Below are positions 3,583 through 36,221 of a stretch of 64,000 nucleotides of DNA, one piece after another. Numbering within the stretch: the first letter of the stretch is position 1; every line of letters begins with the position of its first letter. The notes under the pieces were generated by a model. It had not been told where the DNA came from. It did not search any database and saw only the letters and a program-made list of their open reading frames with translations. The position numbers and the translations under genes were made by a program. The stretch is from Candidatus Terrybacteria bacterium RIFCSPHIGHO2_01_FULL_48_17 (lineage in GTDB: Bacteria; Patescibacteriota; Minisyncoccia; Terrybacterales; 2-01-FULL-58-14): contig MHSS01000013.1 in assembly GCA_001822835.1 (NCBI GenBank), forward strand, positions 10,321 through 74,320. Direction: 5' to 3'.

Positions 3583-4848
3583 ATGGCGGGAAGGTTCGTT
3601 ATTAATGGGGGAAAACCGCTTTACGGCACCGTCGGGGTGGCGGGTGCTAAAAATGCTGTTTTAAAACTTATCGCAGCATGTCTTTTGACGAAAGAGTCAT
3701 GCACGCTCCATAATATTCCCGATATTTCCGACGTTTCCCAAATGCTTGCGATTTTAGAAAGCATGGGAGTGCGCGTTGAACGTCCCCAGAAAGGAACTGT
3801 TTCTATCGCTGCCGATAGGGTTGACCCCAAAAATATCGCTACCTCTCTCGTCTCAAAGCTGCGTGCATCCGTGGTGCTTTTGGGGCCGTTGCTTGTTCGT
3901 TTTGGCGAAATTCGCTTGCCTTATCCTGGGGGAGATCGTATTGGCGCACGACCACTTGATGCGCATCGCAGCATATTTGAACAATTTGGTGCAGAAATTA
4001 TTTCTTGGGATACGCTTTTGCATCTTCGTATCCCAAGAAACGGTCTTAGGCCCGGCCGGATTGTCCTTCCCGAATTTTCCGTGACTGCAACGGAAAACGC
4101 GATGCTTACTGCTTCGCTGTTGCCGGGTAAAACAATGCTTCATATCGCAGCCGCAGAACCGCACGTGCAAGATCTTGCCGCCTTGCTTGTTCGTATGGGG
4201 ATTAATATTCAGGGGGCAGGAACTCATGATCTTATCATTTTCGGGGAAAAAACGCTTTCGGGCGCTACGCACACGACCATCCCCGATCCTCTGGATGCAG
4301 CTACCTTCCTTATTTTTGGTGCCGCAACGCGCGGAGAGATAGAAATATGTGGCGCGCGCGAGGATCATCTTCTTTTAGTTCTTGAGAAGCTTAAAGAAAT
4401 GGGGGTTGGGCTTAAGGTTGATGGATCCTCTATTTCCGTTTCCGGAAAAGGGCAGCTTCGCGCAACTCGTCGCATTCAAGCAATGCCCTATCCAGGAATT
4501 CCCTCAGATCTTCAGGCGTTATTTGCGGTTCTTGCCACCCAAGCAGAAGGAGAAACCCAAATACACGATCCTCTTTTTGAAGGGCGCTTCCTCTACGTCA
4601 ATGAGCTTAAGCGCATGGGGGCGGCGGCAGAACAACATAATTCCCACGAGGCCCTTATCCGTGGCGTTACCAAGCTTTCTGGAATGAGGATCTCCTCATT
4701 TGATATTCGCGCCGGAGCTGCTATGGTACTTGCGGGGCTTATTGCTGGCGGTCAGACCATTATTGAAGGGGTAGAGCATATCGACCGCGGTTATGAGGAT
4801 CTAGATGGAAGGTTGAGAAGCTTGGGGGCAGATATTATCCGACAATGA
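3583..4848 (+). CDS. murA: UDP-N-acetylglucosamine 1-carboxyvinyltransferase (MurA)
   Basis: MAGRFVINGGKPLYGTVGVAGAKNAVLKLIAA.. matches the MurA N-terminus. The fold (EPSP synthase-like) runs the whole length. An alternative upstream ATG sits at 3553. Confidence 0.9.
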   Translation: MAGRFVINGGKPLYGTVGVAGAKNAVLKLIAACLLTKESCTLHNIPDISDVSQMLAILESMGVRVERPQKGTVSIAADRVDPKNIATSLVSKLRASVVLLGPLLVRFGEIRLPYPGGDRIGARPLDAHRSIFEQFGAEIISWDTLLHLRIPRNGLRPGRIVLPEFSVTATENAMLTASLLPGKTMLHIAAAEPHVQDLAALLVRMGINIQGAGTHDLIIFGEKTLSGATHTTIPDPLDAATFLIFGAATRGEIEICGAREDHLLLVLEKLKEMGVGLKVDGSSISVSGKGQLRATRRIQAMPYPGIPSDLQALFAVLATQAEGETQIHDPLFEGRFLYVNELKRMGAAAEQHNSHEALIRGVTKLSGMRISSFDIRAGAAMVLAGLIAGGQTIIEGVEHIDRGYEDLDGRLRSLGADIIRQ

Positions 4849-4925
4849 CCAATGCCCCAAGCTCAAATATCCAATTCGTCGAATTGGTAATTATGATTTA
4901 GACATTCATCGGACATTTATTGGAT

Positions 4926-4953
4926 ATTGGGATTTTGACATTGGGATTTTCAC
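4926..4953. repeat. Intergenic repeat family A (ATTGGGATTTTGACA x2), partial copy, 7 nt upstream of the mreB start
   Basis: attgggattttgacattgggattttcac is the reverse complement of the tandem aaatcccaatgtcaaa units at 33804-33834 and resembles 10196-10215. Confidence 0.5.
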
Positions 4954-4959
4954 AAAATT

Positions 4960-5973
4960 ATGTTCATACGCAAAATCGGCATTGATCTTGGCACCACCAA
5001 TTCTCTTGTTTTCCTTCCTCGCAAGGGCGTTGTGTTGAACGAGCCGACGGTGGTTGCCGTTTCTATTTTGGATAAAAAGGTGGTGGCTGTCGGGCATGCA
5101 GCCAAAGAGATGATCGGCAGAACTCCAGAAACGATCGTTGCGAGCCGTCCCATGAAAGACGGTGTCATCGCCGATTATCGTATTACCGAAGCAATGCTGC
5201 GGTATTTCGTTTCGCGAGCACTCGGTTCATTTCGAATTGTTCGACCTGATGTGATGATTTCGGTTCCTGCCGGAATCACTTCAACCGAGCGGAGAGCCGT
5301 TATTGAGGCGGCGCGTTCCGCAGGTGCACGCGAGGCCTATGTCGTAAAGGAGCCCATTTTGGCAGCAATTGGTGCCGGCCTTCCCATTAATGCGCCTTCC
5401 GGTTCCATGATTGTAAATTCCGGCGGCGGAACGACGGAAGTTGCAGTGTTATCACTCGGCGGACTTGTTGCGGTTTCGTCCGTGCGCGTTGCCGGAAACC
5501 GACTGGACGCTGCAATTATGGAGTTTATGAAGAGAAAATATAACGTAGCAATTGGGGAGCGCACAGCGGAGCAAATTAAAATTGCCATAGGAGCCGCCCT
5601 CCCCTTGAAAGAAAATCCAAAAATGGCGGTGAAGGGACGGGATCTTGCTGGCGGTTTGCCAAAAATTATTGAAGTGAAATCAAATGAAATTACCGATGCA
5701 ATGGCGGATCCTTTGCGGGAAATCGTGCGCGCGGTAAAGGCCGTGTTGCGGGAAACCCCCCCGGAACTTGCTGCTGATGTAATAGAAAACGGTATGGTAT
5801 TATCCGGCGGCACGGCCCTGTTGCGTCATTTGGATAGGTTATTGGAGCAAGCAACGGGAGTGCCCGCGCGTGTAGCCGACGAATCTCTCTTCTGCGTTGC
5901 AAAAGGAACAGGGGCGGCGCTTGAAAGTTTGGATGTATACAAGCAGAGCATATCTTCTCTTAGGAGACCATAA
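4960..5973 (+). CDS. mreB: Rod shape-determining protein MreB (actin homologue)
   Basis: MFIRKIGIDLGTTNSLVF...EPTVVA... is the actin/MreB phosphate-1 motif. The 337-aa length is typical. Confidence 0.92.
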   Translation: MFIRKIGIDLGTTNSLVFLPRKGVVLNEPTVVAVSILDKKVVAVGHAAKEMIGRTPETIVASRPMKDGVIADYRITEAMLRYFVSRALGSFRIVRPDVMISVPAGITSTERRAVIEAARSAGAREAYVVKEPILAAIGAGLPINAPSGSMIVNSGGGTTEVAVLSLGGLVAVSSVRVAGNRLDAAIMEFMKRKYNVAIGERTAEQIKIAIGAALPLKENPKMAVKGRDLAGGLPKIIEVKSNEITDAMADPLREIVRAVKAVLRETPPELAADVIENGMVLSGGTALLRHLDRLLEQATGVPARVADESLFCVAKGTGAALESLDVYKQSISSLRRP

Positions 5974-7058
5974 TGCAAATTGGTATTCATGCTGCAGCAT
6001 TAGTCCGCCCGCGTATCGCGGGCGTTGAACGCTACACCCGCGAGCTTTTGGGGGCGCTTTTGGCGCTTCCGGAATCTCGGAGCCATACGTTTGTCCTTTT
6101 CACACCAACACGCCCCGATTTTGACGTTTCTCAAACGCCGCATGCAAAATTCCATATCGTGCCGCAAAATATTGCTTTTACCCAATTTGGGTTAAGTAAA
6201 GCGTTCTTACGGATGAAGCTCGACTCTTTTTTTGTGCCGGCACATGTGTTGCCCCGCGTGCTGCCTGGTAAAACCGTGGTGACAGTACACGGGCTAGAAT
6301 TTGAACACGCGCCGTGGGCATATCCTAAAACCCAGCGCCTGTGGCTTCGCGTAATGACTAAGGATGCGGTGAAACGGGCGGATAAGGTGATCGCTATATC
6401 GGAGGCGACCAAGCGGGATCTTGTTGAGCGTTATCACGTACCTGAAGATAAGATTAGTGTTATTCATCACGGATTTTCTGTTCAGGAAACTCAAGACGAA
6501 ATAGCATCTAAGGCACAGGTGGGCCGAAAACCATATTTTTTATTTTTCGGACGCCTTGAGCAAAAAAAGAATATTGCCAGCATAGTGCGTGCGTTTACCA
6601 CATTTAAAACCTTAACTCGTTTTCCGCACCGGCTGTTGCTGGCGGGTGCTGCGGGTTTTGGATTTTCCCAAATTAAGAAAGAAGTTGACACAAGCCCGGC
6701 TAAAAATGATATCGTACGATTGGGTTATGTGCCCGATACGCTACGGGGGCATTTACTCAAGTATGCGGCCGCGTTTGTATTTCCATCGTGGGCAGAAGGA
6801 TTCGGTCTTCCTATTCTTGAGGCGCAAGCAGCCGGTGTGCCCGTGATTACGTCAGACACAACAGCCATGCCGGAGATTGCTGGCGGCGGGGCGCTTTTTG
6901 TGGATCCCAAAGACCCAGAAATGCTGGCACAGGCAATGCGAAAAATAGTTCAAGACCCGAAACTTCGGCAAAAGCTTATTGTTGCAGGGCTGGTAAACCT
7001 TAAACGGTTCTCGTGGGAAGAAACCGCACGACGGACTTTAGGAATACTCATAGAATAA
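5973..7058 (+). CDS. Glycosyltransferase family 4 (GT-B, glycosyl transferase group 1)
   Basis: C-terminal EGFGLPILEAQAAGVPVITSD motif (the EX7E-type region of GT4). Its start overlaps the mreB stop (ATAATG). Confidence 0.85.
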   Translation: MQIGIHAAALVRPRIAGVERYTRELLGALLALPESRSHTFVLFTPTRPDFDVSQTPHAKFHIVPQNIAFTQFGLSKAFLRMKLDSFFVPAHVLPRVLPGKTVVTVHGLEFEHAPWAYPKTQRLWLRVMTKDAVKRADKVIAISEATKRDLVERYHVPEDKISVIHHGFSVQETQDEIASKAQVGRKPYFLFFGRLEQKKNIASIVRAFTTFKTLTRFPHRLLLAGAAGFGFSQIKKEVDTSPAKNDIVRLGYVPDTLRGHLLKYAAAFVFPSWAEGFGLPILEAQAAGVPVITSDTTAMPEIAGGGALFVDPKDPEMLAQAMRKIVQDPKLRQKLIVAGLVNLKRFSWEETARRTLGILIE

Positions 7059-7109
7059 TTTTGTATTTCGAATCGTCGGTTTGGATTTTGGGTTTTGGAT
7101 TTTTTGTTT

Positions 7110-8213
7110 ATGCGCTTAGCTTTTGTTACGGAGCCACTTACGCGTTTTGGTGGGGCAGAAAAAGTGCTTCGCGTTTTGCATGAAATGTATCCTGACGCTC
7201 CGATCTACGCACCCTATTATGACCCAGTCGTGGTCGCACGGTTTTTTCCCAAGGCAGAAGTGCGTACCTCCTTTTTACAACGTTTGCCATGGCGCATGCT
7301 GGGGGCGCGCATGCTCTTGCCGCTGCTTGCAGTGGCGGTTGAGTCGTTTGATCTCCGTGATTTTGATCTAGTTGTTTCTTCAAGCTCGGCATTTGCAAAA
7401 GGGGCAGTTACGCGCTCCCATGCCCGTCACGTGGCGTACGTACATACACCACCCCGGTTTTTGTGGGAAGACCGCCATCTTTATCTTGAGGCGCTACGAA
7501 TGCCACTAATAATAAAATGGGGTATTGCCCCTCTTCTTCATTGGTTGCGCACGTGGGATCAGCATACCGCATACCGGGTTGATGGTTTTTTCGCAAATTC
7601 CAGCTATACAGCGCAAAGGGTTAAAAAATATTGGGGAAAAGATGCGCAAGTACTTTACCCTCCCGTAGATACACAATCGTACGCTGGCGATGCAAACTCC
7701 TTTCCGCAAAAACCCTATGCGCTCGCAATTTCTCGTTTTACTCCCCACAAACGTCTTGGGCTTGCGCTCGAAGCATTTCATCGGTTACCGGCACTGTCAT
7801 TGGTAATTGTCGGCGAAGGACCGCAGGAAGGGCTTTTAAAGAATCAAGCGCCGCCAAATGCCGTTTTCCTTCCCTGGCAGGAAACGGAGAACCTTCGTAC
7901 CCTTATGGCACATGCAGAATTTTTCGTAATGCCACAAGTCGAAGATTTTGGAATTACCGCGATTGAATCAATGGCAGAAGGAACTCCTGTGCTTGCATAT
8001 CGTGGTGGCGGGGCGCTTGAAACCGTGAAAGAAGGAGAGACCGGAGAATTTTTTGACGATCAGGACGTATTTTCGCTTGCTAATGGTATCCGTAGAATCC
8101 GTGAAGGGGTGCGTCGGGGCATATATAGAAAACAATTTCTACAAGAATATGTTCAGCGCTTTTCCGAAGATAAGTTTCGCAGCACTGTGGAAAACCTCAT
8201 AAGCCCCTCATAA
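7110..8213 (+). CDS. Glycosyltransferase family 4 (second copy)
   Basis: EDFGITAIESMAEGTPVLAYRGGGALETV motif. Start chosen at ATG 7110 (MRLAFVTEP) because 7095-7109 belongs to a TTTGGATTTTGGG repeat. Confidence 0.8.
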   Translation: MRLAFVTEPLTRFGGAEKVLRVLHEMYPDAPIYAPYYDPVVVARFFPKAEVRTSFLQRLPWRMLGARMLLPLLAVAVESFDLRDFDLVVSSSSAFAKGAVTRSHARHVAYVHTPPRFLWEDRHLYLEALRMPLIIKWGIAPLLHWLRTWDQHTAYRVDGFFANSSYTAQRVKKYWGKDAQVLYPPVDTQSYAGDANSFPQKPYALAISRFTPHKRLGLALEAFHRLPALSLVIVGEGPQEGLLKNQAPPNAVFLPWQETENLRTLMAHAEFFVMPQVEDFGITAIESMAEGTPVLAYRGGGALETVKEGETGEFFDDQDVFSLANGIRRIREGVRRGIYRKQFLQEYVQRFSEDKFRSTVENLISPS

Positions 8214-8237
8214 CGGGTATAGTGTTATAATAAAAAC

Positions 8238-8801
8238 ATGAACGAACAACTTTTCGCCTACGTAACAGATGGCCTTGCAAAGGGCATTAAGAAAGAAGCG
8301 CTTGAAGCCAATTTATTAAAAGCCGGATGGCAAAAAGAGGTGGTTGATCAGGCATTCGCACAAGCGGGAGGGTCTTTTCCCGGATCCTCAACCTTGTCTG
8401 GGATCCCACAAACGGCGCAAGGTGTTGTCGGAGCTGGCAATGGTTCTGGGCTTGGTTCTGCATCCGTGATCCCGCCCGGGGTTTCTGGTTGGGGATGGGG
8501 TCCGTTCCTGCTTACTTGGATTTGGGGAATTGCGCATAAGGTTTGGATAAGCTTGTTGATCTTTATTCCGTTTATTGGGTGGATTATGTGGATTATGTTG
8601 GGGGTTAAGGGGCGTGAATGGGCTTGGCGCGCACAACGCTGGGAGAGCGTTGATCATTTTAATCGCGTACAACGAAAATGGTCTATGTGGGGGGTCATTT
8701 TATCGGTGATCCCACCATTTGCAATTCTACTTATTTTTATGATTCTGGTACTTTTTGCAGGACCGTCTTCTCTTGATACAACTCCGCCTCCCATATATTA
8801 G
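8238..8801 (+). CDS. Hypothetical membrane protein (soluble N-terminal domain, Trp-rich TM C-terminal domain)
   Basis: 187 aa. WGWGPFLLTWIWGI..LIFIPFIGWIMWIMLG hydrophobic segments. No identifiable catalytic motif. Confidence 0.55.
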   Translation: MNEQLFAYVTDGLAKGIKKEALEANLLKAGWQKEVVDQAFAQAGGSFPGSSTLSGIPQTAQGVVGAGNGSGLGSASVIPPGVSGWGWGPFLLTWIWGIAHKVWISLLIFIPFIGWIMWIMLGVKGREWAWRAQRWESVDHFNRVQRKWSMWGVILSVIPPFAILLIFMILVLFAGPSSLDTTPPPIY

Positions 8802-8828
8802 GAAGATTCGATACCTTGATTCTTTACG

Positions 8829-8859
8829 CAAAAACCCGCTTTTAAAGCGGGTTTTTTAT
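8829..8859. terminator. Bidirectional Rho-independent terminator
   Basis: aaaaACCCGCttttaaaGCGGGTtttttatt, with A-run and T-run on both sides, between convergent genes. Confidence 0.6.
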
Positions 8860-9566
8860 TGAAGATTTATAGCCATTACATATGGTTTGTGCACCGAAAG
8901 ATACAGGGTGCGTTTTTTGTTTGTGCGCGCTGCCCACCAAAATTCACCATAACTGAAGTGCCACCATTCATTGGGAATTGAGGCAAACCCTACTGCCTCC
9001 ATTGTCTTTCGTAAGATTCGGCGATTGCGTAGGATATATGCGGGAAGATTTTGATAATCGCGGTATTTCTGATCTTGCCATTCGGTCGGCACGCAGCGCT
9101 TGAATGCTTTTCGCATCGGGAGCAACCGGCCGGTTTTTGCATAAGCAAGTGTAACGTCTATAGCCCCGCCTGTGGTGTGGGGCGGCGGATACGTATCGTC
9201 AGCCGGCACGGCAAACCGATCTGCTTGTTTACGCGCCTCTTCGCGGTTTTGCGCAAGCCCCAGGCGTTCAATTTGCTCTGCTTGGTTTTCGTGAATACCG
9301 GCTTGTGTTCTTGGCGCACGCCACGCGTCGCGTACCACGAGCGTGATATCTGACGGGAGATTTTTTGCGGTAGCATTAAGCAAAATCCCAATACCAAGTC
9401 GCACTACCGCACGATTGTCTTCTCTCAGTATGTTTTTTGACTGGTAAAGCCGTACCATGACGCTTGGGCATGCTTGAGCGATATCAACGAAGGGCTCCGT
9501 AGTGTCAAAGAGCTCGATCTGTTCGAGCTCCTGTTCTTTTCCGATAAGGTCTTCTGGGATTCGCAC
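8856..9566 (-). CDS. D-alanyl-D-alanine dipeptidase (VanX/DdpX-like, peptidase M15D)
   Basis: HTTGGAIDVTL (SxHxxGxAxD-type zinc site) and C-terminal EWWHFSYGE motif characteristic of VanX-type dipeptidases. Confidence 0.7.
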   Translation of the reverse strand: MRIPEDLIGKEQELEQIELFDTTEPFVDIAQACPSVMVRLYQSKNILREDNRAVVRLGIGILLNATAKNLPSDITLVVRDAWRAPRTQAGIHENQAEQIERLGLAQNREEARKQADRFAVPADDTYPPPHTTGGAIDVTLAYAKTGRLLPMRKAFKRCVPTEWQDQKYRDYQNLPAYILRNRRILRKTMEAVGFASIPNEWWHFSYGEFWWAARTNKKRTLYLSVHKPYVMAINLQ

Positions 9567-9853
9567 TAGCGTTCTCCTTGCAGCGACAGTACCTTTTCTT
9601 CAAGCTTTTGTTCGAATTGCTCCATAGCCTTAGGAAAGCCACTCCATTTTTGTGCTATTCCTTCGCGTTCTCCCATGACAAAGTAACGGGCTCGGCGTAA
9701 GAGAGAGAGGGAGGTGTGGTAAACGTCCTGGTCAAGCTCTACACATTCTGCGAGCAGAGTGGTTATGGTGTTTTCGCCGTCGCCGCGGTTTTCAAAATAT
9801 TCCAAAACGTGCATATAAAAACTAGATAGCCTCGCTTCTTTCGTGCGGTTCAT
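9566..9853 (-). CDS. Hypothetical small protein
   Basis: 95-aa ORF in an operon-like position upstream of the dipeptidase. No recognisable motif. Confidence 0.35.
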   Translation of the reverse strand: MNRTKEARLSSFYMHVLEYFENRGDGENTITTLLAECVELDQDVYHTSLSLLRRARYFVMGEREGIAQKWSGFPKAMEQFEQKLEEKVLSLQGER

Positions 9854-9951
9854 GGCCTCTCCTTTTTTGTTGTAAAAATAAACTACGGTGTCTTTCTAGC
9901 ACCGTAGCGTTTTGTTGTCAATTCTGATATCTGATCTCTGATTTCTGATTC

Positions 9952-10191
9952 TTACCTCGTGGTGTAAGGCAACAATGCCAAAAATCGTGCCCGCTTAATT
10001 GATCGTGCAAGCCGGCGTTGGTGTGTAGCGCACACGCCCGTTTTACGTGGCGGTAAAACTTTTGCTTGCGCCGATATGAATTTACGCAGAGACGGTATAT
10101 CTTTGTAGTCAATGTCTACTACGTTTTGGGTACAGAAAAAACAGTTTGCTGCAGGCAGGCGTTTTTGTCGTCTAGTAGGTTTTGGAGGCAT
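9952..10191 (-). CDS. rpsR: 30S ribosomal protein S18
   Basis: CFFCTQNVVDIDYKDIPSLRKFISAQAKVLPPRKTGVCATHQRRLARSIKRARFLALLPY matches S18 almost residue-for-residue in the conserved core. Start set at the internal ATG (MPPKPTRRQ) at 10191. Confidence 0.85.
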   Translation of the reverse strand: MPPKPTRRQKRLPAANCFFCTQNVVDIDYKDIPSLRKFISAQAKVLPPRKTGVCATHQRRLARSIKRARFLALLPYTTR

Positions 10192-10195
10192 AGCT

Positions 10196-10315
10196 ATGAA
10201 AATCCCAATGCCAAATGAAATTTCAAGTTCCAATATCAAAAACCGAACGCGCGAACCTTGGACATTATGTCATTGGGCATTTATTTGGCATTTGAGCTTG
10301 GGCATTCCGCGTGTA
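10196..10315. repeat. Intergenic repeat family A, full-length copy (about 120 bp) between ssb and rpsR
   Basis: gaaaatcccaatgccaaatg ... catttatttggcatttgagctt parallels 33804-33920 (aaatcccaatgtcaaa ... atttatttgacatttgagcttt). Confidence 0.5.
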
Positions 10316-10322
10316 GCGCGGC

Positions 10323-10802
10323 CTAGAATGGTATATCTTTAGGATCAATATCGTCAGGGGGCTTTTCATCCTCAAATGTCATCGGTGCTCCTTCTTCAAT
10401 AACGGGAATTTCCTCCTCTTTTTTCGTTTCCTCTGTTTTCGGCTCTGTGCCTTGTGCCTTGTATGCTGCTCCCTGGCCTTTTGGTCCAAGCTGCAAGCGT
10501 TCCGCCACAATTTCAGTTCGCCATCGTTTCTGGCCGTCTTGTCCTTCCCACGAGCGCGTCTGCAGCCGCCCTTCGATGAGCACGAGATTTCCTTTTTTGA
10601 GGTATTCGCGCGCAATCTCTGCGAGCCGTCCCCAGCATACCACGGTATGAAATTCGGCCTGTTGTTGTTTTTGTCCTGCTTTATCCATAAAAATGCGATT
10701 GGTTGCCATCCGGAAATTCGCAACTGGCTGTCCGCCTTGCGTCATGCGTGCTTCAACATCTATTGCGACGTTACCCAGGAGAAAGACTTTGTTTAAATTC
10801 AT
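10323..10802 (-). CDS. ssb: Single-stranded DNA-binding protein
   Basis: MNLNKVFLLGNV...FRMATN...EFHTVVCWGRLAEIA..YLKKGNLVLIEGRLQTRSWE OB-fold signature. Acidic C-terminal tail DDIDPKDIPF (the canonical tip is DDDIPF). Confidence 0.9.
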   Translation of the reverse strand: MNLNKVFLLGNVAIDVEARMTQGGQPVANFRMATNRIFMDKAGQKQQQAEFHTVVCWGRLAEIAREYLKKGNLVLIEGRLQTRSWEGQDGQKRWRTEIVAERLQLGPKGQGAAYKAQGTEPKTEETKKEEEIPVIEEGAPMTFEDEKPPDDIDPKDIPF

Positions 10803-10813
10803 AATATGTATGA

Positions 10814-11254
10814 TTATGATTGAATGGATTCGGTAGCAGCCACCGCTTCGTCTATCTTTTTATCTATTTCGCCTGGTGGCGCGGACTGCTCTTCCGGTGG
10901 GCTCGGCGGTTTTGGCGTCTGCGGCTGTATCGCGACGCGCGGTTTGGTCTCGCGTTGTTCTTCAATAATAAGCATGCGCAAAAGAACCTGATCGTGTTTC
11001 ATCCCCTCGCGGATTTTTTCTGGAGCGGTGCTTGGGCCTGTAAAAATCAACCATCCAAAAAACGCTTGTTTGTGGTGTTTGACGGGATACGAGAGAATAT
11101 GTCGTTTGGGATCTGGCATTTCGCGTATTGAGCCCTCTGCGGAACCCACCAGTGCGGAAAGCTTTTCCAACCATGTTCGTACTTCCCCTTCAGGGGTTTG
11201 GGGGCTTAAGAGATACGCCATTTCATATCCTTTGAGTTGTTTTTCGTCTTCCAT
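10814..11254 (-). CDS. rpsF: 30S ribosomal protein S6 with a Pro/Glu-rich C-terminal extension
   Basis: YEMAYLLSPQ....AEGSI....LSYPVKHHKQAFFGWLIF matches the S6 core. Sits in the classic rpsF-ssb-rpsR order. Confidence 0.85.
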   Translation of the reverse strand: MEDEKQLKGYEMAYLLSPQTPEGEVRTWLEKLSALVGSAEGSIREMPDPKRHILSYPVKHHKQAFFGWLIFTGPSTAPEKIREGMKHDQVLLRMLIIEEQRETKPRVAIQPQTPKPPSPPEEQSAPPGEIDKKIDEAVAATESIQS

Positions 11255-11261
11255 AATCGTT

Positions 11262-12284
11262 TTATATACGAAAAGTCAGGACATCGCCATCTTGCACAGT
11301 ATACTCGCGTCCCTGTGTTTCGACAAGCCCCTTCTCGCGTGCCTGTGTAAATCCTCCCGCGGCAACTAATTGGTGCCACGGCAGCGCATCGCACTTTATG
11401 AATTTTTCGGCAAAATCACTATGCACCATTGCTGCAGCTTCTACGGCCGTGGTACCTGTTTTGCAGAGCCATGATCTAATTTCGTTTCCACCGGCTGCGG
11501 TGAAAAAGGTTATAAGCGAAAGGAGTTTTTTTGCTGCCGCAATAATATCTGGGGCGCAAGATATAAAGCCAAGCTCGCGCAATTCCTCCGGAGAGAGTGA
11601 TTGGGCGTCAAGTTCCGTTTGCGCATCCAGCACACTGGCAGCAATATCTCTTGGCGAGGGTTTTGCGCCATTGAGAACAATTAGCATTGGTTTCGCAGAC
11701 AAGAGGGGAACTTCCTTCAAATAATCTACTACTGATATATTTCCTCTCACGTGTTGTTGCGCAGAGATGCCACGCCCAAATGCCTCGCGCATATCTTTCC
11801 AGACGGCAAGTGCTTGCTGCGCGGTTTTTTCTCCCGACCGGGCCATGGCCTCAAATCGTTGAACCTCCTTCTCTGCGGTTTCAAGATCTTTCATAATAAG
11901 CTCTGTCTCGAGTATAGATAAATCATCTTTTGGCTGGGGACTATCGGCAATATCTTTTGTAACAAAATTGCGGAGTACAACAATAATGACATCGGTTTCT
12001 CTGATATGCGCCAGAAATTGGTTGCCCAACCCCTCGCCTTGGTGCGCGCCTTTCACTAAGCCGGCAATATCTATTACCTCAATAGTTGCTGGGGTGCGTT
12101 TTGCGATACCGAGGATTTCTGCAAGCTTATCGAGACGTTCGTCTAAAATGGCGATCACGGCTCGGTTAGGGTCAATTGTGGTAAAAGGGTAAGGCGCAAT
12201 AGCGACAGATTGTCTAGAGAGCGCCGAAAAAAGCGTTGATTTGCCCGCGTTGGGAAGGCCGACGATACCTAGGGAATAGGGCAT
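11262..12284 (-). CDS. ychF: Ribosome-binding ATPase YchF (Obg-family GTPase with C-terminal TGS domain)
   Basis: GIVGLPNAGKSTLF Walker A, DIAGLVKGA, and C-terminal TGS (..GFIKAEV-like: FIKCDALPWHQLVAAGG...REKGLVETQGREYTVQDGDVLTFRI). Confidence 0.9.
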   Translation of the reverse strand: MPYSLGIVGLPNAGKSTLFSALSRQSVAIAPYPFTTIDPNRAVIAILDERLDKLAEILGIAKRTPATIEVIDIAGLVKGAHQGEGLGNQFLAHIRETDVIIVVLRNFVTKDIADSPQPKDDLSILETELIMKDLETAEKEVQRFEAMARSGEKTAQQALAVWKDMREAFGRGISAQQHVRGNISVVDYLKEVPLLSAKPMLIVLNGAKPSPRDIAASVLDAQTELDAQSLSPEELRELGFISCAPDIIAAAKKLLSLITFFTAAGGNEIRSWLCKTGTTAVEAAAMVHSDFAEKFIKCDALPWHQLVAAGGFTQAREKGLVETQGREYTVQDGDVLTFRI

Positions 12285-12311
12285 AGGGTACAGGGTTTAG
12301 GGTACAGGGAT
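12285..12311 (+). repeat. G-quadruplex-type motif (GGG-N4)x4, repeat family C
   Basis: aGGGtacaGGGtttaGGGtacaGGGa, directly abutting the ychF start codon (on the non-coding side) and 34 nt upstream of suhB. Confidence 0.4.
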
Positions 12312-12344
12312 TAGTTCCATAACGCAACGTGGTAGAATAAAATC

Positions 12345-13103
12345 ATGGAACGCCTCGAACTGGCAAAACAATTGGCGCAGGAAGCCGGGGAAATCGTGCT
12401 CGGATATGCGAAAAAGGGTTTTAGAACAAGCCAAAAAGACGGAGGGTCGCTGGTCACCGAAGCTGACCTTGCCGCGGAAAAGCATATTTTGGCCAAAATC
12501 AAAGAGTATTTTCCAGATGACGGGATCGTTGCAGAAGAGATGGGCGCGCAGGAAGGAAAATCTGATTTTTCGTGGCATATTGATCCCCTAGATGGCACGA
12601 CAAATTTCGCGCACGGCCTTCCTTTATATGGGGTTTCTATAGGAATTACCAAAGGAGTTATCCCATATGCCGGTGCCATTTTCCTGCCGCCGTTTGGCGA
12701 ACTTTATGAGGCCGAACGCGGACGTGGCGCACGATTAAATGGTTCTCTTTTATCAGTTTCGGGAACCGAAGAAACCTCAAGCGGTATTATTGCGCTCGCC
12801 GGGCCTCGTTTTGTCGATTCCGTACGGGACGACGAACTGCCTCTCCAAAAGATTATTTCGCGCATACGGAGAATTCGTGTGTTGGGAAGCATTGTTATGA
12901 ATCTCTGCCTCGTTGCGAAGGGCGCTGCAGATGGAGGTCTTTGCGTGCGGCAAAACTCATGGGATGCTGTTGCGGGCGTGTCGTTAGTTGAGGAAGCAGG
13001 AGGTATTGCGGTTGATTTTCTGGGAGAACCATACACGACAAAAAGTGAGAATTTACTTGTAGGAAACCCAAAGGTTGTCTCTTTTCTGCAAAAGTTAGTA
13101 TGA
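12345..13103 (+). CDS. Inositol monophosphatase family protein (SuhB/IMPase-like)
   Basis: WHIDPLDGTTNFAHGLP metal-binding motif and the AEEMG upstream motif. Confidence 0.8.
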   Translation: MERLELAKQLAQEAGEIVLGYAKKGFRTSQKDGGSLVTEADLAAEKHILAKIKEYFPDDGIVAEEMGAQEGKSDFSWHIDPLDGTTNFAHGLPLYGVSIGITKGVIPYAGAIFLPPFGELYEAERGRGARLNGSLLSVSGTEETSSGIIALAGPRFVDSVRDDELPLQKIISRIRRIRVLGSIVMNLCLVAKGAADGGLCVRQNSWDAVAGVSLVEEAGGIAVDFLGEPYTTKSENLLVGNPKVVSFLQKLV

Positions 13104-14581
13104 AAATAAACCCAACCATATTTCGTGAATACGATATTCGTGGGGTTGCTGGCGAATCTTTTACCTCTCAGGCAATTGCCGAGTATGAACGATGGTACGG
13201 CCCGTTTCCCGGCATCACCATCACTCTTGAGGCCGCAGAATACATCGGTAAAGCCTATGGAACATATATCCGTCGAGAAAAAGGCAAACGCGTGATCGTG
13301 GGAAGGGAAATTAGACCTTTTGCAAAAGAGCTTACCGAGAGTTTTGTAAAAGGAGTTTTGAGTACGGGATGCGACGTTTATGACGCCGATGAAGTACTTA
13401 CGCCGCTTGTTTATTTCGCCGTTGCTTTTTTTGGTTTTGATGGTGGCGTCAATGTTACCGGGAGCCACAATGTGTATTTCTACAATGGTTTCAAAATGAT
13501 GTCCCGAAATGTCCGTCCTATTTTTGGCGAAAAACTGCAAACCTTGCGGCAAATGGTAGAAAATGAAGATTTTGAAAAGGGAAATGGAACGTATGCTATA
13601 CAAGAAATCTATCCAGCATACGAGAAATATATCCTTGCGCAGGTTAAATTGGCGAGGTCGTTGAAAATCGTTATGGATTGTGGCAACGGAAGTAGCGGTC
13701 CTTTCGCGCCGCAATTGTTTAAAAAACTTGGATGTAAGGTAACGGGCATGTATACGGAACCGGACGCAACATTTCCAAACCATATTCCCGATCCGGAAAT
13801 GCCAAATACGCTCGTGGAACTCCAAAAGCGGGTTGTGAGAGAGCGAGCAGATTTAGGAGTGGCGTTTGATGCAGATGGCGACCGCGTTGGTTTTGTAGAT
13901 GAAAAAGGGGCGTTCATTGACGCAGATAAGTTCATCCTTATTTTGGCGCGCGATATTTTACAACGTCATCCCGGTAAAAAGATTTTATATGACGTGAAGT
14001 GCTCGCGATTGCTGCAGGAACTTATTCCGCTGTATGGGGGGGTGCCTTTTATGCATAAAACCGGCCATGGCCCCATAAAGGATACGCTTCATGCCGATTC
14101 TGATATTATTCTTGCCGGAGAAGTTTCGGGGCACCTTTATTTTGTGGAGGATTGGTTTCGTTTCGATGACGCCCTTTTTGGCGCCGCACAGATCTTAAAA
14201 CTTGTGGCCGCGCACGCCAGGCCATTTTCTTCGTTTTTCGAAGAAATACCGGTGACGGTACGTACCCCGGAACTGAAACTTCCCTGTGCTGATGAGAAGA
14301 AGTTTCAGGTAGTCGATACCATTTCCGACTTCTTCAGCTCGAGATACAAAACCATAACCATCGATGGGGTTCGTGTTTTGTTTGATGAGAAAAGCTGGGG
14401 CTTGATTCGTGCTTCAAACACCTCCGGTTATTTAACGATCCGCATTGAAGCAGATACAAAAGAGCGGCTGCTTGAAATTAAAAATATCTTTGCCGATAAA
14501 CTTGAAGAGTTTTCTGAAATTAGAGATAAGCTTAATAGACACGAAGTTTCCTCATTTACGGGCCGTCTTGGATGGGTTTGA
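13100..14581 (+). CDS. Phosphomannomutase/phosphoglucomutase (alpha-D-phosphohexomutase family)
   Basis: Active-site loop TGSHNVYFYNGFK (the TASHNP-type phosphoserine loop), about 490 aa, four-domain architecture. Confidence 0.85.
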   Translation: MKINPTIFREYDIRGVAGESFTSQAIAEYERWYGPFPGITITLEAAEYIGKAYGTYIRREKGKRVIVGREIRPFAKELTESFVKGVLSTGCDVYDADEVLTPLVYFAVAFFGFDGGVNVTGSHNVYFYNGFKMMSRNVRPIFGEKLQTLRQMVENEDFEKGNGTYAIQEIYPAYEKYILAQVKLARSLKIVMDCGNGSSGPFAPQLFKKLGCKVTGMYTEPDATFPNHIPDPEMPNTLVELQKRVVRERADLGVAFDADGDRVGFVDEKGAFIDADKFILILARDILQRHPGKKILYDVKCSRLLQELIPLYGGVPFMHKTGHGPIKDTLHADSDIILAGEVSGHLYFVEDWFRFDDALFGAAQILKLVAAHARPFSSFFEEIPVTVRTPELKLPCADEKKFQVVDTISDFFSSRYKTITIDGVRVLFDEKSWGLIRASNTSGYLTIRIEADTKERLLEIKNIFADKLEEFSEIRDKLNRHEVSSFTGRLGWV

Positions 14582-14633
14582 CGTTTCTTGGTATGGGAAG
14601 CAGGACGCCCCATAATTGTGGGGCGTTTATGTT

Positions 14634-15479
14634 TTATAGTTCTGGTTCAACTTGTATTGTTGCATCAGCCCGGAGTTTTTCTTCCAATGCCTTGCGCACC
14701 GTTTGTACGATTGGGTATGCGTTTTCAATGGTCGTGTGGGCTTTTACCCGAATGTGAAGGTCAATAAAAGGATCTTCGGCGGTTCCGCGGCTTCGAATAT
14801 GGTGGCATTCGATTACTCCGGGAATTTTTTCGACAACCGTTCGGATTTCTTGCTCGTCAAATACTTTTGCATCAATGAGTATTTGAATATTCTCCCAAAT
14901 GAGCTCGCGGACGGCAATAAAGATGATAAGCCCGGCAATCGCAAGTGCGGCAAGTGGGTCCAGAACCGATACTCCTATTTTGAGTGCGCCGTAACCTACT
15001 AAGACGGCCCCTCCGGCAAAAAGGTCGCTTACTGTGTGCGTCGCATCTGCCTTAAGCAATCGTGATTGCCAACGTTTCCCAAGGAAACGCTCGATACTGG
15101 CAATGAGGGCATTTAAAACGAGCGTTCCTACAAGTAGCCAGAAGGCGATGGGAGAGAACACAACGGCGCTTCCCGATATAAGTTTTTCAATGCCTTGCTG
15201 TGCCACCACCACTCCACCAGCGAAAACCATAAGGCCGATGATCACTACGGCGAGTGGCTCAAAACGTTTATGTCCGTACGGATGTGCTTCGTGTGCGGGA
15301 CGAGCTGCGAGCCAAATACCGAAAATTGCGACGATATTCGCCCCACTATCAGAGAACGCATGAATCGCATCGGCCAGAATACTTGAACTTCCGGTAAGCA
15401 CATGAAGCACGATTCGCGTGATTGCAACACTAAGGTTTAAAGCAAGGATAATACCAAGCGCGGTAATCTGTCGCTTCAT
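14634..15479 (-). CDS. Cation diffusion facilitator family transporter
   Basis: Six TM segments, the HAFSD-x-GANIVAI signature in TM2, and a C-terminal cytoplasmic domain (...IHHIRSRGTAEDPFIDLHIRV). Confidence 0.85.
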   Translation of the reverse strand: MKRQITALGIILALNLSVAITRIVLHVLTGSSSILADAIHAFSDSGANIVAIFGIWLAARPAHEAHPYGHKRFEPLAVVIIGLMVFAGGVVVAQQGIEKLISGSAVVFSPIAFWLLVGTLVLNALIASIERFLGKRWQSRLLKADATHTVSDLFAGGAVLVGYGALKIGVSVLDPLAALAIAGLIIFIAVRELIWENIQILIDAKVFDEQEIRTVVEKIPGVIECHHIRSRGTAEDPFIDLHIRVKAHTTIENAYPIVQTVRKALEEKLRADATIQVEPEL

Positions 15480-15594
15480 TCGTTTTCACCTCGTAAGGTT
15501 CTGTGTATTCAATTATAACCTATTTAGCGTATTTTGGCAACAATTAAAAATTCCCGCCATCCGGGAAGCACGAAAGGGGAAGCCATGGGTTAAG

Positions 15595-16575
15595 TTAGAT
15601 AAGCCCCATTTTCTCTTTTACCTCGTGTAGCGTTTTTTGGGCAATGTTGCGTGCTGCATTGCGACCCGTTTCCAAAACAGCATCAATGTATTCCGGCGTG
15701 TTTTCTAGCCGCTTTCGTTTTTGTTGGAATAAGCTAAGCTCCCTGGCAACTACTTCTCCAAGCTCTTTTTTAAAAATATCATATCCTCGGCTCCTATATT
15801 CACGAACAAGCTCTTTGGCGTCTTTTCCGGAAAAGGCACTAAATATGGTAAGTAAATTCGAAAGCGCCGGTTTTCCGTTAGGATCGTACACAATTTCGGT
15901 TCCTGAATCTGTAACAGCCCGCTTGATTTTTTTGCGGATAAGATCGGGCACATCCGAAAGCGCGATATACGAATCCTCAACATGGGACTTCGACATTTTT
16001 TTTGTCGGTTCCTTCAATGACATAATGCGCGCGCCTTGCTGCGCAAGAATCGCTTTAGGTTCTGGGAATAGGTTTCCAAAACGGGAATTAAAGCGTTTTG
16101 CAATGGTGCGCGTAAGTTCAAGATGTTGAACTTGATCTTCACCAACCGGAACACCCTCGGTTTTGTAAAGTAGGATATCCGCAGCCATAAGCACGGGGTA
16201 TAAAAGCAGCCCCGCGTTAACGCCCTGTTTTGCAAATTGTTGCGCCTTATCTTTATATTGGGTCATGCGCTCAAGTTCGCCGATTTGGGCCACCGTGGTT
16301 AAAAGCCACATAAGTTCCGTATGTTCTGGTATGTGCGACTGCACAAAGAGCGTGCAGCGCTTAGGATCAAGCCCGAGCGCTAAATAATCAAGCGCAATGT
16401 TTTTGGTACGTTGCTGCATCTCTTTCGGTTCATAGGGCTCGGTAATGGCGTGCAAGTCAACGATTAAAAACAAGCACTCGTGCTCTTGTTGCAGTTCAAT
16501 CCATTGTTTAATCGCCCCCAAGTAGTTTCCAATATGGAGGGTACCGGATGGTTGAATGCCGGAGAGGATACGCAT
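15595..16575 (-). CDS. trpS: Tryptophan--tRNA ligase
   Basis: MRILSGIQPSGTLHIGNYLGAI (HIGH motif region) and KMSKS. Confidence 0.92.
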   Translation of the reverse strand: MRILSGIQPSGTLHIGNYLGAIKQWIELQQEHECLFLIVDLHAITEPYEPKEMQQRTKNIALDYLALGLDPKRCTLFVQSHIPEHTELMWLLTTVAQIGELERMTQYKDKAQQFAKQGVNAGLLLYPVLMAADILLYKTEGVPVGEDQVQHLELTRTIAKRFNSRFGNLFPEPKAILAQQGARIMSLKEPTKKMSKSHVEDSYIALSDVPDLIRKKIKRAVTDSGTEIVYDPNGKPALSNLLTIFSAFSGKDAKELVREYRSRGYDIFKKELGEVVARELSLFQQKRKRLENTPEYIDAVLETGRNAARNIAQKTLHEVKEKMGLI

Positions 16576-16681
16576 AAAACGAGGGAATAGGAACCAGGGA
16601 ACAGGGAATAGCGGAATTGACTCTTTATTTTGATTCTGTTATCATTCTAGCGAAGTTGTTTGACAAAGGAAAGGAATAGAA

Positions 16682-17128
16682 ATGATTGTTGCGCCTGGTA
16701 TGTTTGCGACTGTTGTTATGTGTGTGGCCGTGTTGGGGTTGGCGTGTTTTTTGATTGGACGCACGAAAGAAAAAGGTTGGGAATTCTTTATCGGCGCTGG
16801 AGCGTTTATACTATTTGGGTTGGTTGTGTTTTCGATAGCTCTCTACGGCGGCATTGCGCGCGATAACGGTTTTGGCAATCCTCAAACCTCTCTTGAGCCG
16901 GGAGTGTATGAGATTTATGGAAAAAGATTGGGAAACGAAGTGCTTTATCTTTTAGCGGCGGAAGTGCGCCCGCAATCTACGACAGAGCCAAATTTCGTAA
17001 AACTTGCCTATAAGGATGTCGAACGATCGCCTACGCAGCCGGGAACTTTCATGGTAGTTAGGGTTACGCGCTGTTTCACAGTAACTGATTGCCTCACAAA
17101 ATTAGATTTTGTTTTTGTAGGAGAATAA
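16682..17128 (+). CDS. Hypothetical membrane protein
   Basis: Two N-terminal TM helices, then a soluble domain. No motif recognised. Confidence 0.45.
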   Translation: MIVAPGMFATVVMCVAVLGLACFLIGRTKEKGWEFFIGAGAFILFGLVVFSIALYGGIARDNGFGNPQTSLEPGVYEIYGKRLGNEVLYLLAAEVRPQSTTEPNFVKLAYKDVERSPTQPGTFMVVRVTRCFTVTDCLTKLDFVFVGE

Positions 17129-17142
17129 ACCAATACACTTTT

Positions 17143-17176
17143 CCTCGGCGCGAGCCGAGGAATTTCTTTTTTTCTT
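17143..17176 (+). terminator. Rho-independent terminator
   Basis: CCTCGGCgcgaGCCGAGG followed by aatttctttttttcttcc. Confidence 0.55.
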
Positions 17177-17424
17177 CCCTCTTTTCTTTCTGCGAGCGAG
17201 ACCGTTTTCTTTCTAAAATGCGATCCCAATCTACGAATAGCATCCGAATGCTCCGAATATTGACGTTGCGCAAGTGGCGTGGCTGCGAGCGGGTTACGAG
17301 CGCGGAACGGGCATGGTTCGAGCGGAGTCGCGTTTGACGCGACGGAGCGAGAGAGTGAAGCGCGAGTCCCCGAGCTCGCCACGCTGGGGCGAGCAAGGAA
17401 AGCGAGCAACCATGCCATCGCGCC

Positions 17425-19215
17425 TTACACCTCTATAATAACGGGTAAAACCATGGGTCTTCGCTGCGTCTTCTCAAACAAAAACCTGCCCAGCTCCTCT
17501 TTGATGCTCTCTTTGACATGCATCCAATTTGGCTGTTGCTGTGCTCGTTGTGCATGCCCCTCAATATTATTACGTACCAAATCGCGCGCCTCCCGTAGCA
17601 ATTGTTGTGATTCTTTCAGATATACAAATCCCCGCGAAATAACATCCGGGCTTCCTTTTACTTTTCCTGCATGCGTATCAACGACCGCAATAATCACAAA
17701 CATGCCGTCCCCGGCCATTTGTTGCCGATCCCGAAGCACTATTTCTTTCACATCCCCAACGCCAAGGCCGTCTACAAAAACATACTGTGCCGGCGCCTTT
17801 TCCCTCCGTACCTGTATTTTGTCATGGCCCACCTCAATAATTGCGCCATTGAATCCCACAGCTACGTTCTCTCGGGGTATGCCCATGGTTTCTGCAAGCT
17901 CGGCGTGCGTTTTCAGCATTGAATACTGGCCGTGGATGGGTACCAAAAACCTTGGTTTCACCAGCGCAAGCATGAGTTTCAGATCTTCGGCATACGCATG
18001 GCCTGAAGCGTGAATATCCATCATGCGATAGTGGAATACATGGGCTCCTTGCCGCATAACCGCATCTTTTAGATACTGCACTTGCCGTTCGTTTCCCGGA
18101 ACGATTGATGAGGAGAAAATGACCGTATCGTTTGGATGTAGCGTTATAAACCTATGTTCGCGGTTTGCAATGCGCATGAGTACCGCCCGCGCTTCGCCCT
18201 GCGCCCCGGTACAGAAAACCGCAACGCGTTTTGGGTCTATTTTTTCGGCATCCCTAACGTCCACGAGCATTCCTTGAGGAATTTTAAGGTGTCCAAGCGC
18301 GCGTGCTACTTCAACATTTGCTTTCATGCTGTAGCCATCAATAGCAACTTTACGGCCATATTTTTCGGCCAATAAGAATCCTTGTTGTAGCCGCCCGATG
18401 AGCGATGCAAACGTTGCCATGATAACGCGCCCCTCGGCATTTTTAAAAATAGGGTCGAGGTTTTCCATAATGACGGATTCTGAAAGCGAGTAGCCTGGGT
18501 GTTCGGCTCCTGTTGAATCCGACAGCAGGCATAACACACCTCGAGAGCCGATTTCCGCAATTTTTTGCAAGTCCGCCGGCTCATCTCCAACGGGCTTGAA
18601 ATCGAACTTGAAATCGCAGGTATGCACGATGGTGCCGATGGGCGTTTTAATGGCAAGGCCAATGGAATCTGGAATATTATGGTTTACGTGAAAGTGCTCA
18701 ATGATGAATGGGTCCAAACGCATTGGCGTGGGGTCGCCTTTTTTGAGCAGGTGGATTTGGGGTTTTGGTGAGTCGGGGAAATCCTCCTGGCGTTTTAAAA
18801 TCATGCCGCGCGTGAGCGCCGTGGTATAGACCGGCGGGTTGCCTAGATCTCTGAGAAGATAGGGTAGAGCTCCCATGTGGTCGTAGTGGCCGTGGGTGAT
18901 AAAGATGCCGTGGATAGTTTTCTCTTTGCCGCGCAAATACGAGATATTGGGAATGATAAAGTCAATGCCCGGCGTATCTTCTTCCGGAAAACGCAGGCCG
19001 ATATCAATAATAAGGCGGTCATCGCCGTACTCGATAACCATCATGTTGCGGCCGACTTCTTCAAAGCCGCCCAACGGGATAACACGAACGGCTTTTTGGG
19101 TCGGTTTGGGCATTTCCAGACGCTGTTCTTCGGGATAGCGTCTGCGCCTATGCGGCTGCATGTGGCGCGGTTGCCGCGGCGTCCTGCGACGTGCAGATAG
19201 TGGAGATGTCATCAT
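17425..19215 (-). CDS. rnj: Ribonuclease J (metallo-beta-lactamase/beta-CASP RNase) with an Arg-rich N-terminal extension
   Basis: VRVIPLGGFEEVGRNMMVIEYGDDRLIIDIGL...ITHGHYDHMGALPYLL (HxHxDH). About 560-aa core. An alternative start is MPKPTQ at about 19113. Confidence 0.88.
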   Translation of the reverse strand: MMTSPLSARRRTPRQPRHMQPHRRRRYPEEQRLEMPKPTQKAVRVIPLGGFEEVGRNMMVIEYGDDRLIIDIGLRFPEEDTPGIDFIIPNISYLRGKEKTIHGIFITHGHYDHMGALPYLLRDLGNPPVYTTALTRGMILKRQEDFPDSPKPQIHLLKKGDPTPMRLDPFIIEHFHVNHNIPDSIGLAIKTPIGTIVHTCDFKFDFKPVGDEPADLQKIAEIGSRGVLCLLSDSTGAEHPGYSLSESVIMENLDPIFKNAEGRVIMATFASLIGRLQQGFLLAEKYGRKVAIDGYSMKANVEVARALGHLKIPQGMLVDVRDAEKIDPKRVAVFCTGAQGEARAVLMRIANREHRFITLHPNDTVIFSSSIVPGNERQVQYLKDAVMRQGAHVFHYRMMDIHASGHAYAEDLKLMLALVKPRFLVPIHGQYSMLKTHAELAETMGIPRENVAVGFNGAIIEVGHDKIQVRREKAPAQYVFVDGLGVGDVKEIVLRDRQQMAGDGMFVIIAVVDTHAGKVKGSPDVISRGFVYLKESQQLLREARDLVRNNIEGHAQRAQQQPNWMHVKESIKEELGRFLFEKTQRRPMVLPVIIEV

Positions 19216-33340: not shown

Positions 33341-33344
33341 GGGC

Positions 33345-33371
33345 TTGACAAGCCCTTTTGCTTTGTATAAA
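33345..33371 (+). promoter_or_regulatory. Sigma-70-type promoter for groES-groEL (TTGACA-15/16-TATAAA)
   Basis: TTGACA at 33345-33350, TATAAAT at 33366-33372, immediately upstream of CIRCE. Confidence 0.5.
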
Positions 33372-33387
33372 TAGATAAGTGGCGGCA

Positions 33388-33414
33388 TTAGCAGTAAACA
33401 CGTCGGACTGCTAA
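33388..33414 (+). promoter_or_regulatory. CIRCE operator (HrcA binding site)
   Basis: TTAGCAGTA-N9-GACTGCTAA is the 9-9-9 CIRCE architecture (consensus TTAGCACTC-N9-GAGTGCTAA), 100 nt upstream of groES. Confidence 0.8.
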
Positions 33415-33806: not shown

Positions 33807-35568
<1,762 letters not shown>

Positions 35569-36216: not shown

Positions 36217-36221
36217 AAAGA

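Follow-up and report, generated by a model that had tools for sequence, protein, structure and literature searches.

The DNA analysed here (the window) is a 64-kb stretch of a Candidatus Terrybacteria (CPR) genome that originates from the Rifle aquifer metagenomes. Within it the genes ychF and suhB, the latter encoding a product that matches Pfam Inositol_P (5e-53), lie divergently on either side of a 60-nt spacer, most of which is occupied by a G-rich tract. Related tracts are found upstream of trpS (tRNA-synt_1b, 1e-80), inside an open reading frame (ORF) for a nucleotidyltransferase (NTase)-like protein and within a gene-free stretch. These features, together with the suhB start and a weaker stretch of the same kind, are as follows.

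12272-12313, plus strand: G-rich array 1, GGGAATA GGGCATA GGGTACA GGGTTTA GGGTACA GGGATTA; six units with an AGGG core
12330-12347, plus strand: suhB start, with its ATG at 12345; an extended -10-like element, TGgTAGAAT, then 6 nt
16583-16610, plus strand: G/A-rich array 2, GGGAATA GGAACCA GGGAACA GGGAATA; antisense to trpS
27058-27088, plus strand: weak related period-14 stretch, GGATACGGGGGAAAGGATACAGGGGACAG, inside uvrA
30660-30708, plus strand: G-rich array 3, GGGTACA GGGCACA GGGTACA GGGGACA GGGAATA GAGAATA GGGCAAA; seven units
32416-32441, minus strand: partial array 4, CAGGGTA CAGACAT CAGGGTA CAG; in the loop of hairpin H2, within the gene-free stretch

The GGG tracts are heptanucleotide tandem repeats with the unit YAGGGNN (GGGTACA, GGGAATA and GGGAACA). 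Array 1 contains six GGG runs at a spacing of exactly 7 nt; the original prediction had placed four GGG-N4 units between ychF and suhB, and these are present in a tract that is longer than was claimed. Array 1 crosses the start codon of ychF (ATG at 12284-12282 on the minus strand) and its first two units fall within codons 1-5, on the strand opposite to the gene, the first five codons being themselves heptads. From the elements that precede the suhB ATG we infer a promoter and a leaderless-type start, which would place array 1 upstream of the -35 position of the putative suhB promoter. Array 2 ends 7 nt upstream of the trpS ATG (16575, minus strand). A variant with 3.5 G-runs had been predicted there; the site is correct and the number of runs is not, since only three GGG runs are present. 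The tract predicted at 30660 is confirmed as array 3, which lies within ORF 30557-31540 (nucleotidyltransferase-like) with the G-rich strand as the sense strand, and which encodes VQGTGYRGQGIENRAK in a loop of variable length among homologues. In the relative L130, whose protein is 64% identical to that of this ORF, a decayed copy of the array is found at the same position. The inverted partial copy expected in the gene-free stretch exists as array 4, with only two G-runs, 14 nt apart; its segment 32416-32442 forms an inverted pair with segment 30671-30697 of array 3, 1.7 kb away. The expectation that the arrays stand beside gene starts holds for two of them (ychF and trpS), where the G-runs are antisense, and fails for the other two. 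G-rich heptamer arrays amount to four to five copies in the 64 kb of the window. The similarity among their loci is limited to the heptads, and no marks of a mobile repeat (MITE/REP) were seen there in the form of shared flanks, terminal inverted repeats or target-site duplications.

Exact matches to GGGN4GGGN4GGGN4GGG were found five times in the window (overlapping matches) against 0.003 expected. The motif GGGTACAGGG, with at most one mismatch, gave 11 matches against 1.63 expected and a maximum of 5 in 100 shuffles, and canonical regions of four G3+ runs with N1-7 spacers numbered 6 against 1.03 +/- 1.01, a figure that none of 300 dinucleotide shuffles reached. Counts so far above those of shuffles, together with the shared AATA and TACA spacers, uphold the claim that these tracts are a repeat family and not chance G-runs. 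The premise that G-quadruplex (G4) motifs should be rare here because of a low GC content was wrong, the GC content of the window being about 48% (range 44-51%). Some other motifs were also considered. A match to GGGTACAAGG at 24754-24763 falls in the part of uvrC that encodes the conserved GIY-YIG core, and it probably arose by chance; KOPS (GGGNAGGG) and Chi-type polar motifs were rejected because their spacing does not fit. HIP1 is present in the window as a single copy, so that the host is not a cyanobacterium.

Period-7 repeats in the window and in other genomes

A scan of the window for periods of 2-21 gave 0-5 arrays at every period except 7, which had 16, and 14, which had 15, and TRF lists the heptamer arrays too, at periods 7 and 14. 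The G-rich arrays are one subfamily of this period-7/period-14 repeat population, which is called genome-wide here on the basis of the 64-kb window; the other members of the population are incapable of G4 formation. Most of the sibling arrays have no G-runs (TTCTGAT, CTTGTAT and TGACATTGGGATTT) and they occupy the same contexts as the G arrays. Non-coding DNA, which makes up 13% of the window, contains 13 of 21 arrays (p = 3e-7). The siblings and the heptad hairpin elements are listed below.

4916-4954, plus strand: TTGGATA TTGGGAT TTTGACA TTGGGAT TTT, directly upstream of the mreB ATG at 4960
7080-7105, plus strand: (TTTGGAT)n, directly upstream of a glycosyltransferase ATG at 7110
9922-9950, plus strand: (TTCTGAT)4, between rpsR and the next gene, adjoining a terminator-like hairpin
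32831-32864, plus strand: CTTCTCT CTTATCA CTTATTA CTTTAAA, in the loop of hairpin H3
24184, 36217-36349 and 56871-56990: CTTGTAT / ACAAGAT arrays
4916, 10199-10310 and 33805-33920: TGACATTGGGATTT arrays
10199-10310: hairpin element X, copy 1, in the ssb-rpsR spacer; one heptad arm is rich in A/C and the other in G/T
33805-33920: hairpin element X, copy 2, which takes up the groES-groEL spacer; z -3.40
36217-36349: hairpin element Y, copy 1, upstream of an M48 peptidase gene; ACAAGAT / CTTGTAT heptads, z -4.02
56871-56990: hairpin element Y, copy 2, upstream of a signal peptidase gene; z -4.03

Inverted pairs of arrays give rise to long predicted hairpins in the groES-groEL, M48 and signal peptidase spacers (z -3.4 to -4.0). 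Copy 1 of element X is 76-83% identical to copy 2, and its predicted fold is no better than those of shuffles (z -0.08). The array in the mreB leader is 94% complementary to 33805-33838. Elements X and Y are dispersed and 110-130 nt in length; the first arm is rich in A/C and the second in G/T. A similar element is found between atpD and atpC in a distant CPR relative (L199, about 1100-1200) and shares the 17-nt string TTTGAACTTTGGATTTT. Heptad arrays were also seen inside coding regions, in uvrC (24184-24212), in uvrA (27058-27088) and in the relative L131 (1890-1928), at positions that are non-orthologous.

The gene-free stretch of about 2 kb (31541-33515) lies between the NTase-like gene and groES, and was also observed in L131 (6934-8807), L132 and L133. 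It contains four strong, related hairpins, H1 (about 31869-31933), H2 (32383-32462), H3 (32764-32886) and H4 (33084-33137), with z of -3.5 to -7.9 and with stems of the form CTCTCCCTGCA...TGCAGAGAGAG. As minus-strand RNA, H2 has a predicted energy of -39.7 kcal/mol (z -5.25). The hairpin loops differ among relatives. Colinear patches (31547-31570, 31726-31792, 31929-32002, 32864-32914 and 33148-33207) retain 75-100% nucleotide identity with relatives in which the identity of the NTase-like protein is only 52%. An Rfam search of 31400-34000 by E-value returned only chance miRNA-like matches, and an Rfam search of the whole window at the gathering thresholds matched only two tRNAs. The gene-free stretch is a candidate for a large structured non-coding RNA. 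Elsewhere in the window the 3' end of tRNA-Ser (40671-40695) is repeated with 80% identity 89 nt downstream (40760-40784), possibly as a scar left by integration.

Arrays of the same kind are found well outside this genome. When 185,579 species genomes were scanned for GGGTACAGGGNNNNGGGTACAGGG, at least 119 loci matched, where by our own estimate roughly one would be expected. The matches listed include Acidobacteriaceae, Chloroflexales, Bacteroidota, Cyanobacteria, Omnitrophota, Syntrophaceae and Parcubacteria, and the genome from which the window comes is not among them. In 778 kb around the listed GGGTACA arrays, with the seeds masked, there were 108 arrays of period 7 and 62 of period 14, with 0-20 at other periods. 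The mode of array size is four units (45 of the 119 listed), the search pattern itself setting a floor of 3.4 units. For comparison within the CPR, 80 loci (667 kb) were fetched via a protein and are hence unselected for repeats; these contain 89 arrays of period 7 and 53 of period 14, with 3-34 at other periods, and the units are similar to the ones found in the window. An ATG follows within 30 nt at only 14 of 99 arrays in these relatives. The units AAATCCC, AATGTCA and TTTGAACTTTGGATTTT recur at several loci of the window and in distant CPR relatives. The notion that GGGTACA is a uniquely favoured unit was rejected, as in viral contigs it was found 5 times, the permuted GGGATCA 56 times, GGGCATA once and GGGAATC 6 times.

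The G arrays showed no length variation in 10-17 independent assemblies from different samples, in which their surroundings are likewise identical and colinear. A regulatory role or a function as recombination hot-spots had been suggested for the tracts; no evidence for either was found. All four G arrays are identical in these assemblies; ychF and trpS are covered by 10 of those compared, and the 30660 region by 10. At one sibling array, assembly L281 lacks exactly 14 nt (CTTCTCT CTTATCA, two units, at 32837-32850), and the youngest duplications within the G arrays are 14-nt blocks with 94% matches (TRF). These are consistent with footprints of whole-unit slippage or unequal exchange. L281 further departs from the window at 33 positions clustered within groES (33656-33749) and by a 4-nt ATAA indel at 33375-33378, with the flanking 20 kb nearly identical; this could represent a recombination tract or an assembly chimera.

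Gene starts, strand orientation and quadruplex potential

Most genes of the window have no Shine-Dalgarno sequence, and at many the ATG is preceded, at a distance of 6-10 nt, by a TGnTAnnAT-like element (for example at 2121 on the minus strand, 8238, 12345, 44500, 47700 and 57412). The architecture of the suhB start is common to the starts at 8238, 47700, 57412 and 2121. Since TGnTAnnAT-like elements precede many ATGs, the sequence suggests that leaderless mRNAs are widespread in this Terrybacteria genome. A promoter and terminator scan of 4000-18000 gave counts no higher than those of shuffles, and in the same scan no ychF or trpS promoter was found within the arrays; to regard TACCCT or GATTTT as -10 elements is speculation.

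Neither a Shine-Dalgarno sequence nor a leaderless-type signal is seen at ychF, trpS, mreB, groEL, rpsR and the gene at 7110, and at all six the ATG has a heptad array in front of it that ends 0-9 nt away. For ychF and trpS the G-rich strand is the antisense one and the distance from array to ATG is 0 nt and 7 nt respectively, so that the mRNAs would carry C-rich CCCUGUA-like repeats directly before the ATG. Both of these leader RNAs are predicted to be unstructured (z -0.46 and +0.75). In the set of at least 119 GGGTACA arrays the C-rich strand is the sense strand in 32 cases and the G-rich strand in 10 (p = 0.0009), counting arrays that lie at most 50 nt before an ATG-led long ORF. This test is symmetric for both strands and was used because greedy ORF picking is unusable in high-GC genomes. 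After stop codons the same listed arrays show no orientation bias (33 vs 29), and the second half of the strand rule of Rehm (2015), by which the G strand is the coding strand directly behind a stop codon, is therefore not reproduced.

Quadruplex formation had been claimed for the tracts in general. It is predicted for arrays 1 and 3, each of which has at least four GGG runs, and the claim does not extend to the trpS array, which has three, or to the copy in the gene-free stretch, which has two, so that no three-tetrad intramolecular G4 is possible at either. With G4 energies included, ViennaRNA predicts a three-layer G4 for array 1 (-12.8 vs -5.5 kcal/mol) and for array 3 (-10.2 vs -3.9 kcal/mol) and none for the trpS array. 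The G4Hunter score is 1.36 for the tract at 12270-12311 and 1.88 for the array at 30660, and scores of at least 1.2 are also reached by 55 other segments of the G-skewed strand in the window.

Within the three main arrays, G positions have changed in 2 of 51 cases and spacer positions in 17 of 64 (p = 0.0009). A recount of the same arrays by column gives 18 of 68 for the spacers and shows that the A before GGG is invariant (17/17). Across phyla, in 327 flanking units of the matches listed, conservation is 77-83% for the core CAGGG and 57-67% for the remaining two positions. Since the loop bases C and A are conserved as well as G, the quadruplex alone is no sufficient explanation. The conservation of the CAGGG core points to constraint or to a sequence-specific process, and quadruplex capacity would appear to be a real by-product for two of the arrays and not the defining trait of the family.

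Origin and possible roles of the arrays

On balance we lean slightly towards reading the arrays as heptamer simple sequence repeats (SSRs) made by slippage and kept where constraint is low, with G-rich leaders filtered out and with quadruplexes incidental. The observed ground of this best explanation is the existence of the arrays, their non-randomness and periodicity, their enrichment in non-coding DNA, the orientation bias and the whole-unit indel. Arrays would arise and be resized via slipped-strand mispairing or unequal exchange, in steps of 7 or 14 nt, and would persist in places of low constraint, among them short spacers, the beginning of the ychF coding sequence, a protein loop of variable length and the loops of hairpins. 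An orientation filter would then purge G-rich copies from mRNA leaders, since the ribosome would be kept from initiating by an RNA quadruplex or other G-rich structure at its entry site. A dedicated regulatory or recombination role is not needed to explain the arrays. The presence of the same units at several loci and in distant CPR relatives is, however, not predicted by purely local slippage, and as this recurrence, the CAGGG core and the four-unit mode are left unexplained by the slippage model, two rival explanations stay alive.

One of these, which we regard as rather unlikely, is that the heptads provide a platform with a 7-nt register for a single-strand-binding protein of the Csp, S1 or KH type, which would bind at leaders or at promoter DNA and act in initiation; the leaders concerned would be those that have no Shine-Dalgarno sequence and are not leaderless. 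A single cold-shock domain spans some 6-7 nt of a pyrimidine-rich strand. The six leaders that lack either signal and have an array 0-9 nt before the ATG are consistent with such binding, although no array is found at many other genes of the window without a Shine-Dalgarno sequence. The leaders of ychF and trpS, both C-rich, are predicted to lack structure. The composition of the sense strand varies between arrays, being U/G-rich at mreB and groEL and C/U-rich at ychF and trpS. The orientation bias before start codons (32 vs 10 of the listed arrays) can be set against the presence of arrays after stop codons, in ORFs and in hairpin loops, and against the CPR relatives, where only 14 of 99 arrays lie within 30 nt of an ATG. 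Conservation of the CAGGG/CCCTG core across phyla extends to two loop positions for which a G4 would have no use, and the same idea has been proposed for the TAACTGA repeats of Beggiatoaceae (PMC4679880). A tblastn search for CspA, CspB, Hfq and CsrA found none in the window, 64 kb being an uninformative size for such a search. In a bolder form, the CAGGG/CCCTG and U/G-rich heptads would constitute a Shine-Dalgarno-independent initiation or regulatory code, read in a 7-nt register by a single-strand-binding protein. This would explain the same units at many loci and across phyla, and the code would then be widespread in bacteria rich in leaderless mRNAs, CPR included; we consider it distinctly improbable.

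The other is that the arrays are DNA G4/i-motif regulatory elements that tune divergent transcription, acting from the template strand of ychF and trpS and from the non-template strand upstream of the suhB promoter. Two arrays with at least four GGG runs, 4-nt loops and a predicted G4 would suit this role, but the trpS array has three GGG runs and the copy in the gene-free stretch two, and the G4Hunter score of the ychF tract is only 1.36. The G positions are better conserved than the spacers, although the loop positions C and A are conserved like the G positions. The four-unit mode across phyla would be expected if G4 capacity mattered; siblings without G-runs nevertheless occupy the same places, and viral contigs contain ten times as many loci of the permuted GGGATCA as of GGGTACA. 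It has been shown that G3N4 oligonucleotides of the same design (GGGAATC x4) form G4 in vitro, yet the repeats in that study had no regulatory role found for them and are under-represented between divergent ORFs, which is where both intergenic arrays lie here (PMC4692102). Taken together these data make a role of this kind quite unlikely. It has also to be considered whether the arrays are hypermutable contingency loci or recombination hot-spots, at which a change in unit number would switch genes and inverted copies would drive rearrangement. A two-unit 14-nt indel does distinguish assemblies at a sibling array, slippage of a 7-nt unit within an ORF would shift the frame, and the inverted pair 30671-30697 / 32416-32442 lies 1.7 kb apart. 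Against this, the 10-17 assemblies are identical and colinear with one another at the four G arrays and around them, only the sibling array varies, the flanking genes (ychF, suhB and trpS) are housekeeping genes, and the repeats described by Rehm show greater, not lesser, local stability (PMC4692102). We judge this last explanation to be very improbable indeed.

Comparison with known heptamer repeats

In bacteria, tandem repeats of heptamers have been on record since 1990, and they form the commonest class of long SSR. The present work extends them to a CPR (Terrybacteria) genome, in which many units coexist and the G4-capable arrays form a single subfamily. An independent cross-phylum sample again has the C-rich strand as the sense strand ahead of start codons, which reproduces the known rule, and a whole-unit indel is documented in a natural population. 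As the host is uncultivated, the functional question is not opened to experiment by this case alone.

Heptamers as the commonest long SSRs of prokaryotes, with polymerase slippage proposed as their origin, were described by Mrazek 2007, as summarised in PMC4679880. The arrays of the window fall within the heptanucleotide class of long SSRs, being longer than chance and with 7-nt units dominating. So far as that summary of Mrazek, Guo and Shah 2007 goes (PMC4679880), the likeness consists in the dominance of period 7, the patchy phylogenetic distribution and the proposal of slippage; the 2007 survey predates CPR genomes, whereas here unit families recur and pair as inverted, hairpin-forming arrays.

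TAACTGA heptamers lie just before start codons in marine Beggiatoaceae, cyanobacteria and Bacteroidetes (MacGregor 2015, PMC4679880). They resemble the present arrays in that 2-6 direct copies stand a few nt upstream of starts in place of a Shine-Dalgarno sequence (PMC4679880), in the housekeeping genes among those downstream and in occasional copies within ORFs. A forward repeat that ends a few nt before the start, with no Shine-Dalgarno sequence, is likewise found at ychF, trpS, mreB, groEL, rpsR and 7110. The sense repeat here is CCCTGTA-like and many units coexist, whereas TAACTGA is nearly the sole repeated heptamer in the BOGUAY draft; no TAACTGA unit was found among the arrays of the window. 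The STRR heptamers of cyanobacteria (Calothrix, Anabaena), which PMC4692102 also cites, are intergenic tandem heptanucleotides with no known function; their units and hosts differ from those described here, and cyanobacterial arrays are often longer. In Geobacter metallireducens, GGGACCG x4 is present at 49 sites and MTYCTGA x5 at 15 sites, both annotated as putative regulatory (PMC2700814). These too are arrays of 4-5 tandem heptamers, both intergenic and intragenic, with one G-rich family, and the MTYCTGA family resembles the TTCTGAT array at 9922-9950, although units and host differ from those here. A literature search for the unit strings found no paper on a GGGTACA/CCCTGTA unit in bacteria.

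The closest known system is that of the G4-capable GGGNATC heptamers of Xanthomonas and Nostoc (PMC4692102). These repeats (GGGAATC and GGGGA(C/T)T) are enriched in non-coding DNA, prefer four units and have no identified function (Rehm 2015, PMC4692102). Where they lie at most 50 bp upstream of an ORF, their G strand is the non-coding one; they are under-represented between divergent ORFs with greater stability of the surrounding DNA, and GGGAATC x4 oligonucleotides form G4 in vitro while the C strand forms an i-motif (PMC4692102). The units are not the same, being GGGNATC or GGGGAYT there and GGGTACA, GGGAATA, GGGAACA and GGGCACA here. The present host is a CPR bacterium with a small genome, both intergenic arrays lie between divergent genes and a further array has its G-rich strand in the sense orientation within an ORF; a G4 was demonstrated in vitro there and is the prediction of an energy model here. 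Both systems consist of short arrays of tandem 7-nt units with a G3-4 tract, 4-nt spacers and a four-unit mode, and in both the dispersed copies, mostly non-coding and occasionally inverted, have housekeeping genes as neighbours. In both, arrays up to 50 bp ahead of an ORF have their G strand on the non-coding side, as is seen here at ychF and trpS.
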